DNA of 64,000 bases from NCBI GenBank assembly GCA_035459025.1, contig DATHYT010000085.1:64133-128132 (forward strand). The letters are read 5' to 3'. A program made the position numbers and the translations under genes. The notes under the pieces are model-generated. The model searched no databases. It worked only from the letters and a program-made list of their open reading frames with translations, and was not told the DNA's origin. The stretch's first letter is position 1; every line of letters begins with the position of its first letter. This document shows positions 12,976-57,209 of this stretch, piece by piece. This DNA is from Burkholderiales bacterium. Lineage in GTDB: Bacteria; Pseudomonadota; Gammaproteobacteria; Burkholderiales; SG8-39.

Positions 12976-12982
12976 TCTTAGC

Positions 12983-12990
12983 TAACATAG
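12983..12990. promoter_or_regulatory. Overlapping back-to-back -10-like boxes in the 21-bp sulP/hyi divergent spacer
   Basis: Plus strand: TAACAT (12983-12988), 8 nt before the hyi ATG at 12997. Minus strand: TATGTT (12989->12984), 8 nt before the sulP TTG at 12975. No SD on either side. Confidence 0.3.
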
Positions 12991-12996
12991 TCGCGC

Positions 12997-13776
12997 ATGC
13001 CCCGCCTCGCCGCCAATGTTTCCCTGATGTTCCCGGAAGTTCCCTTTATGGAGCGCTTCGCTGCCGCGGCGCGCGCCGGCTTCCGCTACGTCGAGTATCA
13101 GTTTCCCTACGCCTTCGGCGGCGCGGCCGAGGTGGCGCAGCGCGCGCGCGACGCGGGCGTCGAAGTGGTGCTGCACAACCTGCCGGGCGGTGACGCCGCC
13201 AAGGGCGATCGCGGCATCGCCTGCCAGCCAGCGCGCGTCGCCGAGTTTCGCGAGGGCGTGGAGCGTGCCATCGAGTACGCGAAGGCCGCCGGCTGCCCGC
13301 GCCTGAACGCGCTTGCCGGCGTTGCGCCGGCGGACGCCGCGCCGGAGCTGCTGTTCGAGACGCTGGTGGAGAACCTGCGCTTCGCCGCCGGCAAGCTCGC
13401 GGCGGCTGGCCTGACGCTGCTCACCGAGCCTGCGAACCGACGCACGATTCCGGATTTCTTCCTGTGCGGCTCGCGCCAGGGCATCGAGGTGATCGACGCC
13501 GCGGGCGCCCCGAACCTGAAGCTGCAGTACGACATCTTCCACATGCAGATCGTCGAAGGCGACCTCGCCAAGACCATCGAGCGCCTGCTGCCGCGGATCG
13601 GCCACATGCAGCTCGCCGACGTGCCCGATCGGCACGAGCCCGGCACCGGCGAGATCAACTTCGATTTCCTTCTTGCGCACATCGACCGCCTGGGCTATCA
13701 GGGCTGGATGGGCTGCGAGTACATCCCGAAGGGCGACACGGTCGAGGGGCTCGGGTGGGCGAAGCGCTACCTGTAG
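12997..13776 (+). CDS. hyi: Hydroxypyruvate isomerase family (TIM-barrel sugar-phosphate isomerase/epimerase)
   Basis: 259 aa starting MPRLAANVSLMFPEVPFMERF. The sequence is Hyi/OtnI-like along its full length and ends in GWMGCEYIPKG. Confidence 0.88.
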   Translation: MPRLAANVSLMFPEVPFMERFAAAARAGFRYVEYQFPYAFGGAAEVAQRARDAGVEVVLHNLPGGDAAKGDRGIACQPARVAEFREGVERAIEYAKAAGCPRLNALAGVAPADAAPELLFETLVENLRFAAGKLAAAGLTLLTEPANRRTIPDFFLCGSRQGIEVIDAAGAPNLKLQYDIFHMQIVEGDLAKTIERLLPRIGHMQLADVPDRHEPGTGEINFDFLLAHIDRLGYQGWMGCEYIPKGDTVEGLGWAKRYL

Positions 13777-15242
13777 CGGGCCGCGAGCGCCAGCGCGCCG
13801 TGGCGCGGGCGCTCGGCGCCTTCCTGCCGGAGCGCGCGGTGCTGTGGCAGGAAGAGGACACGCGCCCCTACGAATGCGACGGGCTCACCGCGTACCGGCG
13901 CGTGCCGATGGTGGTGGCGCTGCCGGAGACCGAGGCGCAGGTGCAGGAAGTGCTGCGCACCTGCCACGCGCTCAAGGTGCCGGTGGTGCCGCGCGGCGCG
14001 GGCACCGGCCTTTCGGGCGGCGCGCTGCCGCCGGGCGACGGCGTGCTGCTCTCGCTCGCCAAGTTCATGCGCATCGTGCGCGTCGATCCCGTGGCGCGCG
14101 TCGCGGTGGTGCAGCCGGGGGTGAGGAACCTCGCCATCTCGGACGCAGCCGCGTCCTACGGCCTGTACTACGCGCCCGATCCGTCGAGCCAGATCGCCTG
14201 CACCATCGGCGGCAACGTCGCGGAGAATTCGGGCGGCGTGCACTGCCTGAAGTACGGGCTCACGGTGCACAACGTGCTCCGGGTGCGCGGCTTCGCCGCC
14301 GACGGCGAGCCGCTCGATTTCGGCTCGGAAGCGCTCGATGCGCCGGGCCTCGACCTGCTGGCGCTGATCGTGGGCTCGGAGGGCATGCTGGCGGTGGCCA
14401 CCGAGATCACGGTGAAGCTGCTGCCTAAGCCGCCTGCGGCGCGCGTGGTGATGGCCTCGTTCGACGACCTGCAGAAGGCGGGCGACGCGGTCGCCGCGGT
14501 GATCGCCGCGGGCATCATCCCCGCGGGCCTGGAGATGATGGACCGGCCGGCGACGCGGGCGGTCGAGGAGTTCGTCGGCGCCGGCTACGACCTGCAGGCG
14601 GCGGCGATCCTGCTCGCCGAGGCCGACGGCCTGCCGGAGGAAGTGGACGAGGACATCGCGAAGCTGAGCGAGGTGCTGACGCGCGCCGGCGCCACGCGCC
14701 TGACCGTGTCGCGCGACGAGGCCGAGCGGCTGCGCTTCTGGTCCGGGCGCAAGGCGGCGTTCCCGGCGATGGGCCGCATCTCGCCCGACTACTACTGCAT
14801 GGACGGCACCATCCCGAGAAAGCGCCTGGGCGAGGTGCTCGGCTTCATCGGCGAGATGGAGAAGAAGTACGGGCTGCGCTGCCCGAACGTGTTCCACGCC
14901 GGCGACGGCAACCTGCACCCGCTGATCCTGTTCGACGCCAACGACCCCGGCCAGCTCAAGCGCACCGAGGAATTCGCGGCCGAGGTGCTCGAGAAATGCG
15001 TCGCGGTCGGCGGCACCATCACCGGCGAGCACGGCGTGGGCGTGGAGAAGATCAACGAAATGTGCGCGCAGTTCCGCGACGAGGAGCTCGAGCTGTTCCA
15101 CGCCGTGAAGCGCGCCTACGATCCCGCGGGCCTGCTCAACCCCGGCAAGGCGGTGCCCACGCTCGCGCGCTGCGCCGAGTTCGGCCACCGGCACGTGCAC
15201 GCGGCCACCGCCGCGGCGCACCCGGGCCTGCCGCGCTTCTGA
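13755..15242 (+). CDS. glcD: Glycolate oxidase FAD-binding subunit GlcD
   Basis: Near-colinear with E. coli GlcD (PYECDGL, VVPRGAGTGLSGGALP, PDPSSQIACTIGGNVAENSGGVHCLKYG). The probable start is the GTG at 13755, which overlaps hyi by 22 nt. The alternative is the GTG at 13800. Confidence 0.9.
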   Translation: MGEALPVAGRERQRAVARALGAFLPERAVLWQEEDTRPYECDGLTAYRRVPMVVALPETEAQVQEVLRTCHALKVPVVPRGAGTGLSGGALPPGDGVLLSLAKFMRIVRVDPVARVAVVQPGVRNLAISDAAASYGLYYAPDPSSQIACTIGGNVAENSGGVHCLKYGLTVHNVLRVRGFAADGEPLDFGSEALDAPGLDLLALIVGSEGMLAVATEITVKLLPKPPAARVVMASFDDLQKAGDAVAAVIAAGIIPAGLEMMDRPATRAVEEFVGAGYDLQAAAILLAEADGLPEEVDEDIAKLSEVLTRAGATRLTVSRDEAERLRFWSGRKAAFPAMGRISPDYYCMDGTIPRKRLGEVLGFIGEMEKKYGLRCPNVFHAGDGNLHPLILFDANDPGQLKRTEEFAAEVLEKCVAVGGTITGEHGVGVEKINEMCAQFRDEELELFHAVKRAYDPAGLLNPGKAVPTLARCAEFGHRHVHAATAAAHPGLPRF

Positions 15243-56044: not shown

Positions 56045-56064
56045 GGCTCCTCCTTTGCCGGGAA

Positions 56065-57186
56065 TCATACTTTGAAGGGCGTGTGCTCGTTCAACTCGTT
56101 CACGTAGCGCGCGATGCCGCGCGCCTCGCGCTCGAGGTAGTCCTCGACGGCGCGCGCGAAGCGCCGGTGCGCCAGCCAGTGCGCCGAGAGCGACTCCGCG
56201 GGCAGCAGCCCCCGGAACAGCTTGTGCTCGCCCTGGGCGCCGCCTTCGAAGCGCGCCAGGCCGTGCGCGATGGCGTACTCGATCGCCTGGTAGTAGCAGG
56301 CCTCGAAGTGCAGCAGCGGCACGTGTTCCACCGCGCCCCAGTAGCGGCCGTAGATCGTGTCGCCCGCCACCACGTCGAGCGCCGCGGCGATCGGCGCGCC
56401 GCGCCGCTCGGCGAGCACGAGGAGGAAGTTCTCCGGCATGGCCGCCGCCACGCGCAGGAAGAACTCCAGGTTGAGGTACGGCGGCATGCCGTGCAGCGCG
56501 TAGGTCCTGACGTAGCAGCGGTGGAAGAACGCCCACTCGCGCTCGCCGATCTCGGTGCCGCGCAGCCAGCGCAGCCGCACGCCCGCCTCGTGCACGCGGC
56601 GCCGTTCCTGGCGGATGGTCTTGCGCCGCCGGTGCGACAGCCGCGCGAGGAACGCCTCGAAGTCGGCGTAGCCGGCATTGGCCCAGTGGAACTGCACCGT
56701 GCGCCGGAGCATCATCCCCGCCGCCTGCAGCGCGTGCGCCTCGGCATCCGGCGCGAACAGCACGTGCAGCGACGAGAAGTCGCGCGCCGCGGCGAGCGCG
56801 GCGGCGGCGAGCGCGTCGCGCGCCGCCACGTCGGCCGCGAGCAGGCGCGGCCCGCGCACCGGCGTGAACGGCACCGCGCACACGAGCTTCGGGTAGTACT
56901 CGAGCCCGTGCTGCGCATAGGCGTCGGCCCAGGCCCAGTCGAACACGTACTCGCCGCGCGAATGCGACTTCACGTACAGGGGCAGGGCGCCGGCGAGCAC
57001 GCCCGCGCGCTCGAGCAGCAGAAACTGCGGCTGCCAGCCGGTGCGCGCGCTCGCGCAGCCGCTGTCGGTCAGCGCGGCGAGGAACTCGTGGCGCAGGAAC
57101 GGATTCGACCCGGCGAGGGCGTTCCATTGCGCCGCGGGGATTGCGGCGAGCGAGTCGGCGACGCGCAGCGATTCGTTCGTCGCCAT
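56065..57186 (-). CDS. FemAB-like/DUF482 (GNAT-fold) family protein
   Basis: 373 aa with NPFLRHEFLAALTDSGC..., YYPKLVCAVPFTPVRGPRLL and GAQGEHKLFRG, typical of the PF04339-type family. Confidence 0.85.
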   Translation of the reverse strand: MATNESLRVADSLAAIPAAQWNALAGSNPFLRHEFLAALTDSGCASARTGWQPQFLLLERAGVLAGALPLYVKSHSRGEYVFDWAWADAYAQHGLEYYPKLVCAVPFTPVRGPRLLAADVAARDALAAAALAAARDFSSLHVLFAPDAEAHALQAAGMMLRRTVQFHWANAGYADFEAFLARLSHRRRKTIRQERRRVHEAGVRLRWLRGTEIGEREWAFFHRCYVRTYALHGMPPYLNLEFFLRVAAAMPENFLLVLAERRGAPIAAALDVVAGDTIYGRYWGAVEHVPLLHFEACYYQAIEYAIAHGLARFEGGAQGEHKLFRGLLPAESLSAHWLAHRRFARAVEDYLEREARGIARYVNELNEHTPFKV

Positions 57187-57192
57187 GGCCGC

Positions 57193-57202
57193 ATTATAGA
57201 AT
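57193..57202. promoter_or_regulatory. Overlapping back-to-back -10 boxes (ATTATAGAAT) in the 23-bp DUF482/nadE divergent spacer
   Basis: Plus strand: TAGAAT (57197-57202), 7 nt before the nadE ATG at 57210. Minus strand: TATAAT (57198->57193), 6 nt before the ATG at 57186. No SD on either side. Confidence 0.4.
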
Positions 57203-57209
57203 CCCCGCG

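Follow-up and report, generated by a model that had tools for sequence, protein, structure and literature searches.

Promoter-like hexamers adjacent to start codons suggest leaderless mRNAs in a high-GC contig of an uncultured Burkholderiales bacterium

The DNA considered here is a 64 kb stretch of contig DATHYT010000085.1 from a Burkholderiales bacterium (“the window”, meaning the whole stretch that was analysed), in which the content of guanine plus cytosine (GC) is about 70% and in which isolated hexamers resembling the -10 element of a promoter stand almost against the start codons of a number of genes. The question raised by this arrangement is whether the hexamers are promoters, and whether the genes that follow them are translated from “leaderless” mRNAs which begin at or very near the start codon. 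An earlier note on this DNA had listed 12 such cases as triplets of hexamer, spacer and start codon, and all 12 triplets are found in the sequence exactly as given. The hexamer that was assigned to glcF, TATAGC, is not of the form TANNNT, since it lacks the invariant last T; a case that the list did not include is the molybdopterin oxidoreductase gene whose ATG at 18145 is preceded by TAAAAT at a spacing of N7 (Nx denotes a spacer of x nucleotides). Counting glcF and the 18145 gene, the layout is present in 13 of the approximately 62 genes which were predicted in the window by a codon-usage model trained on the window's own sequence. The single Rfam match in the window is rnpB. The 13 flagged genes, together with rnpB, are the following.

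12983 to 12999, forward strand: hyi (2-oxo-tetronate isomerase); TAACAT 12983-12988, N8, ATG 12997.
12973 to 12989, reverse strand: sulP; TATGTT 12989-12984, N8, TTG 12975; overlaps the hyi hexamer as TAACATA.
16903 to 16917, reverse strand: gene for a small TPR membrane protein; TATACT 16917-16912, N6, ATG 16905.
16912 to 16931, forward strand: glcF; TATAGC 16914-16919, N9, ATG 16929; symmetric partner GAGTAT 16911-16916, N12.
18132 to 18147, forward strand: molybdopterin oxidoreductase gene; TAAAAT 18132-18137 (includes the glcF stop TAA), N7, ATG 18145.
22704 to 22719, forward strand: MsbA-like ABC exporter; TAGAGT 22704-22709, N7, ATG 22717.
46095 to 46441, reverse strand: rnpB and its promoter; rnpB 46095-46428 (Rfam RF00010, 219 bits), TAGAAT 46441-46436, N7.
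48202 to 48216, reverse strand: pyrC; TAGAAT 48216-48211 (includes the rsmI stop TAG), N6, ATG 48204.
49447 to 49464, forward strand: SIS (phosphoheptose isomerase-like) gene; TAGAAT 49447-49452, N9, ATG 49462.
51429 to 51443, forward strand: orphan gene of 176 amino acids; TATCAT 51429-51434, N6, GTG 51441.
53869 to 53887, reverse strand: ABC-F ATPase; TATACT 53887-53882, N10, ATG 53871.
53884 to 53900, forward strand: rhlE; TATAAT 53884-53889, N8, TTG 53898; overlaps the ABC-F hexamer as AGTATAAT.
57184 to 57198, reverse strand: FemAB-like (DUF482) gene; TATAAT 57198-57193, N6, ATG 57186.
57197 to 57212, forward strand: nadE; TAGAAT 57197-57202, N7, ATG 57210; its TA is common to the DUF482 hexamer (ATTATAGAAT).

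Hexamers, start codons and Shine-Dalgarno sequences

The excess of hexamers next to start codons was evaluated by a hexamer-centred test, in which hexamers were listed first and genes second as a guard against bias in the choice of start codons. A hexamer of the form TANNNT was classed as “strong” if it matched TATAAT at no fewer than five of its six positions, and both strands (128 kb of strand) were scanned. Only 23 strong hexamers occur on the two strands of the window. Nine of them precede, at N6-N10, the earliest start codon that a real gene could use; rnpB has one at N7 and a PAS-domain gene has one at N3; ten stand N19-N131 upstream of genes, including icd and glnB, two genes with a clear Shine-Dalgarno (SD) sequence in the leader; and two fall within coding sequence. 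Only three, the rnpB promoter and the two intragenic ones, are without a gene start in the 150 nt downstream. The binomial probability of the nine cases at N6-N10 is 2e-18 when all positions are considered, and 6e-9 given that a hexamer falls 0-150 nt before a gene.

The same result is obtained from the gene side, where the 60 nt upstream of each of the 62 genes were shuffled 5000 times. TANNNT occurs at a spacer of 6-10 nt in 12 genes, compared to 1.48 +/- 1.19 in the shuffled sequences (maximum 7), and strong hexamers occur there in 9 genes, compared to 0.14. Of the 1417 start-like codons that lie in frame inside genes, just 3 are preceded by the TANNNT pattern. The positional signal is real and far above chance. 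All of the flagged hexamers apart from that of glcF are in TANNNT register. An explanation by generic A/T islands was considered and rejected, the A+T hexamers near other starts being SD fragments or unrelated sequence.

The flagged genes are concentrated at the fronts of transcription units. If a gene is counted as a clear unit head when its neighbour is divergent or lies 40 nt or more away, then the window contains 27 such heads, 9 of which have the layout. These nine, eight of them members of divergent pairs, make up most of the 13 flagged genes; the remaining four (pyrC, the 18145 gene, the ABC exporter and the SIS gene) follow a same-strand gene at a distance of 9-38 nt and could be served by internal promoters.

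The spacings would have a more ordinary meaning if the start codons had been mis-assigned, the true starts lying downstream and the hexamers being ordinary promoters with normal leaders. Open reading frames in high-GC DNA do run long, and their starts are often over-extended. The flagged genes have 10 ATG, 1 GTG and 2 TTG start codons (the last in sulP and rhlE), and 11 of the 12 starts that were originally claimed are the first ATG, GTG or TTG past an upstream in-frame stop, the exception being nadE, which has an in-frame TTG at 57141 within the DUF482 gene. When NCBIfam profiles were aligned to the protein N-termini, profile positions 1-5 were reached in eight genes, at residues 1-10 of the protein.

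hyi: protein residues 1-255, profile positions 1-250.
glcF: protein residues 1-400, profile positions 1-408; start confirmed.
ABC exporter: protein residues 3-573, profile positions 5-576.
pyrC: protein residues 4-342, profile positions 2-340.
ABC-F: protein residues 1-632, profile positions 1-634.
nadE: protein residues 2-537, profile positions 2-544.
rhlE: protein residues 5-455, profile positions 2-451.
SIS protein: protein residues 10-203, profile positions 3-196.

The profile alignments confirm the predicted start codons of these eight genes. In rhlE and the SIS gene the next in-frame start would cost conserved residues, and the TTG of rhlE is the only start which preserves the conserved N-terminus. 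Orthologue N-termini align from residue 1, the downstream candidate starts are not preceded by an SD, and genes called independently on metagenome contigs from this organism agree, giving identical proteins of 373 amino acids for the DUF482 gene and 543 for nadE at a distance of 23 nt; the Pfam domain PF04339 spans residues 13-372 of the former. A general mis-assignment of starts is on this evidence very improbable, and the genes for which it retains some force are sulP, where the profile begins only at residue 22 and a second TTG (12945) is available 30 nt downstream, which makes the start uncertain, and the small membrane protein and the 176-aa orphan, whose N-termini are not anchored by any profile.

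The flagged genes also differ from the others in the pairing of their upstream sequences with the anti-SD. In the 13 flagged genes the anti-SD duplex energy has a median of -1.7 kcal/mol, compared to -6.1 kcal/mol in the remaining 48 (Mann-Whitney p = 7e-5). Operon-internal overlapping genes carry GGAG-type SDs, and some first genes have ordinary leaders that contain an SD; the eight genes which the earlier note had named as SD-led do have strong anti-SD energies (-6.6 to -11.6 kcal/mol). The contrast that it drew between the two sets is thereby confirmed, and its statement that none of the listed genes has a purine-rich SD needs correction only for rhlE and the DUF482 gene, which possess G-rich runs (-6.1 and -5.5 kcal/mol respectively) located upstream of the hexamer and more than 14 nt from the start.

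Conservation of the layout and the case for leaderless mRNAs

The strongest line of evidence, a comparative one, comes from related contigs. The nearest genomes are uncultured metagenome-assembled genomes (MAGs) labelled Burkholderiales or Betaproteobacteria, in three of which (loci L001, L004 and L014) the ABC-F protein is 82-83% identical to that of the window; soil metagenome contigs carry proteins identical to the window's, and a metagenome scan based on glcF yielded 80 loci. L004 is syntenic with the window and, like L001 and L014, about 82% identical to it. The layouts in L004, in which the hexamer arrangement is retained though the spacer sequences differ from those of the window, are the following.

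DUF482 gene: TATAAT-N6-ATG.
nadE: TAGAAT-N7-ATG.
Orphan: TATCAT-N6-ATG.
SIS gene: TAAAAT-N7-ATG.
pyrC: TAGAAT-N7-GTG.
ABC-F: TATACT-N10-ATG.
rhlE: TATAAT-N11-GTG.

The hexamer before rnpB is also arranged in L004 as it is in the window. Among other relatives, rhlE has N8 and TTG in L001, and the ABC-F spacing, N10 in L004, is N11 in L001 and N23 in L002. Two genes combine a nearly fixed spacing with a variable spacer: the orphan has N6 in the window, L001, L004 and L014 with four unrelated spacers and with both ATG and GTG, and the small TPR membrane gene has TATACT-N6-start in 19 of 20 contigs (the window and its relatives) and N7 in one, with nine different spacers and exchanges of ATG and GTG. 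In four related contigs hyi has TATGCT-N6-ATG, and four orthologues of the ABC exporter have TAGAGT or TAAAGT at N6, N6, N6 and N7. The hexamer of the 18145 gene overlaps the glcF stop in the orthologues, and of the 12 orthologues with a visible hexamer 10 have N6 (the other two, and the window, have N7), while the N-terminal extension ahead of a conserved Cys motif varies from 2 to 13 residues; because the N6 spacing is largely kept and the extension is not, the start codon of this gene tracks the hexamer rather than the protein.

Over all of the close relatives the spacing has a sharp peak at N6 (23 of 32), which is the canonical distance from the -10 element to the transcription start, and the invariant positions of the hexamer are T1, A2 and T6 (TATACT, TAGAAT, TAAAAT, TATGCT, TACAAT, TAATAT, TATCAT). 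This invariance has the information profile of a -10 element and not that of a generic A/U-rich translation enhancer. Hexamers of the same class are promoter-like elsewhere in the window, at N7 before rnpB and at N25-N34 before the SD-led genes glnB and icd. The earlier note had used rnpB as a calibrator with a spacing of N6; the 5' end of the Rfam match, at 46428, gives N7, and N6 holds if the distance is taken to the preceding G.

The isolated TANNNT hexamers would accordingly be read as -10 elements of sigma-70-type promoters. RNA polymerase would start approximately 7 nt downstream, on the first letter (A or G) of the start codon at N6-N7 or 2-4 nt before it at N8-N10, and the resulting mRNAs would have no 5' leader, or almost none, and no SD. 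Their translation would therefore take the leaderless route, where the 5'-terminal start codon is recognised by a ribosome loaded with initiator tRNA. Both the start of transcription at the hexamers and leader-free translation are predictions made from sequence. The enrichment of the hexamers, the absence of SDs, the start codons and the conserved spacing together give computational support to the leaderless interpretation that had been proposed for this DNA, and it is probable that these hexamers drive the transcription of most of the listed genes, yielding mRNAs with no leader or hardly any.

Several observations weigh against this conclusion. No recognisable -35 hexamer is found 16-18 bp upstream, as is also the case in high-GC Actinobacteria; a -35/-10 sigma-70 scan of positions 44000-63900 recovers no flagged hexamer, and upstream alignments yield no consensus for either a -35 element or an extended -10 (TGn). 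Over their first 36 nt the flagged genes fold more loosely than internal windows do (-5.7 vs -11.1 kcal/mol, p = 0.004), but this folding test does not discriminate, because the 5' coding structure of the flagged genes does not differ significantly from that of other gene starts (p = 0.09). Spacings of N8-N10 would give leaders of 2-4 nt and are therefore not strictly leaderless. The cases of glcF, sulP and rhlE are individually weak, the first because TATAGC is without the critical final T (and the glcF spacing ranges from N4 to N18 among relatives), the other two on account of their TTG starts, TTG being a poor start codon at a 5' terminus. Same-strand gaps of 9-23 nt precede pyrC, the 18145 gene and the exporter, and two of the hexamers include the stop codon of the upstream gene, and read-through with translational coupling could contribute to the expression of these three genes. 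Finally, most of the related contigs share synteny with the window, and what they measure is conservation and not genome-wide frequency.

The missing -35 box would suit an alternative in which transcription comes from distant upstream promoters, and in which the A/T island is a non-SD translation element in the mRNA (unstructured or S1-binding) at a fixed distance from the start. An element that acts as a ribosome-binding site (RBS) would likewise keep a fixed distance, the window contains genes with short SD-less leaders (trxB, ftsK and mnhE, described below), and 38% of Burkholderiales fall in group X of the GeneMarkS-2 classification, which is without clear SD signals (PMC6028130). What renders this alternative rather improbable is the combination of invariant T1, A2 and T6 with a mode at exactly N6, which are the profile and the distance of a -10 element; the occurrence of the hexamer before the untranslated rnpB and 25-34 nt upstream of SD-led genes; its absence from operon-internal genes, which use SDs; and the divergent pairs, which would need a promoter inside the coding sequence of the neighbour, where no other strong hexamer is found.

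For the four same-strand genes (pyrC, the 18145 gene, the exporter and the SIS gene) it can also be argued that the hexamer is a by-product of the preceding gene's stop codon and that the genes are co-transcribed, with re-initiation or coupling. Between these genes and their upstream neighbours there are 9, 10, 23 and 38 nt, and in pyrC and the 18145 gene the stop codon of that neighbour supplies the first three letters of the hexamer. Yet the whole hexamer is conserved (TAGAAT, TAAAAT, and in one contig TACAAT, which has no stop triplet at its start), the spacing of the 18145 gene is N6 in 10 of its 12 orthologues, and an AAT following the stop is unexpected at 70% GC. An incidental origin is for these reasons somewhat unlikely, and a leaderless promoter of the gene's own could coexist with co-transcription or coupling.

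Frequency of the layout and known leaderless systems

The density of the layout was compared by the hexamer-centred test across related and unrelated loci. The window has 1.41 sites per 10 kb, accounting for 39% of its hexamers, and close relatives have 1.81 per 10 kb (44%); the orthologous loci of other Burkholderiales and of orders close to them (846 kb, GC of at least 62%) have 0.24 per 10 kb (6%), and other high-GC glcF loci have 0.16. The density in the window is thus about 6-9 times that of orthologous Burkholderiales loci (1.4 vs 0.16-0.24 per 10 kb). GC content alone was rejected as the cause: it is insufficient because six loci of 68-72% GC outside the clade (L018, L026, L033, L060, L073 and L078) have only 0-1 sites each. 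Since the exact-protein look-up gave only contigs within or just past the window, the estimate of leaderless frequency for the whole genome rests on 62 genes; in the flanks of the related contigs a single additional leaderless-type case was found, icd in L095.

The leaderless layout as such is established in bacteria (PMC6028130, PMC3160421, PMC9581028). Known examples are the Actinobacteria and Deinococcus-Thermus, among them Mycobacterium tuberculosis and Deinococcus deserti, which belong to group C of GeneMarkS-2, a leaderless group in which 25-50% of operons are leaderless and to which 5.6% of Proteobacteria are assigned (PMC6028130); group X is the “weak signal” group of the same study, and its criterion for distinguishing a promoter from an RBS is the restriction of the motif to the first genes of units (PMC6028130). 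The window resembles group C in having SD-less TANNNT hexamers 6-8 nt from first-gene starts, in retaining SDs on internal genes, in its high GC and in its weak -35 elements, and its 9 of 27 unit heads fall within the group C range (PMC6028130). It differs in that the host is an uncultured betaproteobacterium, in its two TTG starts, and in that the leaderless status is predicted.

The remark in the earlier note that leaderless initiation is little discussed for Betaproteobacteria is fair as a description of the literature, but precedents exist (PMC3160421, PMC6028130, PMC4603805). Zheng et al. 2011 drew the same inference from a TA-like signal near starts; of the 71 beta-proteobacterial genomes in their survey, 9 were predicted to contain leaderless genes, which made up 2.8-10.6% of the genes (PMC3160421), a maximum that lies below the approximately 20% found here from 62 genes. 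In Burkholderia cenocepacia J2315, which belongs to the same bacterial class, differential RNA sequencing identified approximately 90 leaderless coding transcripts, roughly 1% of genes, with 72 transcription start sites exactly on start codons and 42 more within 10 nt, 24 being tRNAs, and with an enrichment of transcriptional regulators (PMC4603805); in the window, by contrast, about 20% of genes are affected and housekeeping functions are included (pyrC, nadE, ABC-F, rhlE and glcF). The architecture is therefore a known one that is unusually frequent for the group, and its mechanism is not new.

A more general proposition, for and against which we see the arguments as evenly balanced, is that in this uncultured, 70% GC soil clade about one third of transcription units, housekeeping ones included, are leaderless in the manner of Actinobacteria; that junctions of 21-26 bp hold one overlapping, pseudo-symmetric -10 element which fires both mRNAs; that the start codon tracks the promoter, N-termini adjusting to stay 6 nt away; and that genes such as icd toggle between SD-led and leaderless forms. 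If confirmed, the clade would represent a lineage of Proteobacteria that relies on leaderless expression to a degree comparable with Actinobacteria, and an independent case in which to study why and how bacteria switch between SD-led and leaderless initiation; promoter-aware models would be preferable for calling gene starts in such MAGs, and the bidirectional leaderless junctions of 21-26 bp would constitute very compact two-gene expression modules.

Head-to-head junctions and other gene fronts

Four head-to-head pairs (hyi/sulP, membrane gene/glcF, ABC-F/rhlE and DUF482/nadE) have start codons that are 22, 24, 27 and 24 nt apart respectively, with an intergenic region of 21-26 nt; in each of them two hexamers, one per strand, overlap within a single A/T island.

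hyi/sulP: TAACATA.
Membrane gene/glcF: AGTATAGC.
ABC-F/rhlE: AGTATAAT, hexamers overlapping with an offset of 2.
DUF482/nadE: ATTATAGAAT.

On the glcF side there is only a weak GAGTAT or TATAGC, and if the junction is read as a bidirectional promoter, the real -10 element of glcF is more likely to be the symmetric GAGTAT (AAGTAT in relatives, with a mode of N8) than TATAGC, which would give a leader of 2-6 nt. By means of such overlapping -10 elements one A/T island would drive transcription in both directions, and the upstream promoter region of each gene would lie in the first codons of its neighbour. The first codons of the paired genes would be under evolutionary constraint because they are also the upstream promoter DNA of the neighbour.

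Overlap of opposite-strand -10 hexamers in one A/T island likens the hyi/sulP and DUF482/nadE junctions to the bidirectional promoters of Warman et al., in which the -10 symmetry takes the form TANNNTA for an 18 bp configuration and a shared TA for a 23 bp configuration, and divergent starts are 7-29 bp apart (10.1101/2020.01.31.928960). The hyi/sulP island corresponds to the 18-bp configuration, with A-11 and T-7 paired, and the DUF482/nadE island, with its shared TA, to the 23-bp configuration; the 21 bp predicted for ABC-F/rhlE is outside the preferred spacings (10.1101/2020.01.31.928960). Unlike those promoters, both divergent transcripts are here predicted to be leaderless mRNAs, and it would be because of this that the intergenic region can be as short as 21-26 nt.

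The glcD-glcE-glcF operon is split in this clade by the oppositely oriented gene for the small TPR membrane protein (16294-16905; window 13800-18134), and the 23-nt head-to-head junction at glcF arises because that gene is inserted. In more distant relatives glcE and glcF are adjacent or overlapping (loci compared: L092, L093, L098, L107 and L110-L115).

Six further genes have a strong hexamer at another distance from the start codon.

3221 to 3263, reverse strand: icd, control; TATAAT 3263-3258, N34 leader with SD CAGGAG, ATG 3223; duplex energy (dG) -6.6.
58837 to 58870, forward strand: glnB, control; TATAAT 58837-58842, N25 leader with SD GGGAGGA, ATG 58868; dG -10.3.
60699 to 60732, reverse strand: trxB; TATAAT 60732-60727, N25, ATG 60701; short leader without SD.
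61469 to 61500, forward strand: ftsK; TAGAAT 61469-61474, N23, ATG 61498; SD weak or none; TAAAAT at N22 in L004.
32343 to 32374, forward strand: mnhE; TAGAAT 32343-32348, N23, ATG 32372; without SD.
44912 to 44923, reverse strand: PAS-domain gene; TAGAAT 44923-44918, N3 to the first ATG, 44914; outside the pattern.

The gene icd is SD-led in the window (TATAAT N34, CAGGAG), while in L095 the orthologue, which is 85% identical, shows TATAAT-N10-ATG and no SD; because the two differ in this way, icd alternates between SD-led and leaderless-type layouts. The genes trxB, ftsK and mnhE form a third class of gene front, in which TA(T/G)AAT stands 23-25 nt before the ATG with no SD, a layout which implies SD-less leaders of about 16-19 nt. 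For the PAS-domain gene, either the real start is the TTG at 44896 or TAGAAT is not its promoter.

Some minor observations concern other parts of the window. The divergent genes rsmI and yraN (49044-49084) are at most 37 nt apart, with a CATG overlap (49081-49084) possible if the rsmI ATG is at 49083, and no -10-like hexamer is present at their junction. In the orthologues of ABC-F at L007, L011, L027, L036, L039, L056 and L060 a conserved TAGAATCGCGGGCTTTTT-like sequence, without an SD, is found 20-45 nt before a GTG start; it could be a leader or a regulatory element that has been conserved. Hairpins resembling intrinsic terminators are scarcer between 44000 and 63900 than in shuffled sequence (2 vs 7.8 +/- 3.5). 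A cytidylyltransferase gene (RfaE domain II-like) at about 50666-51170 on the forward strand was overlooked by a simple codon-score caller, and the C-terminal half of a GNAT acetyltransferase (...LYRALGF), which looks like a remnant, lies at 51186-51380 on the reverse strand, just upstream of the predicted promoter of the orphan.

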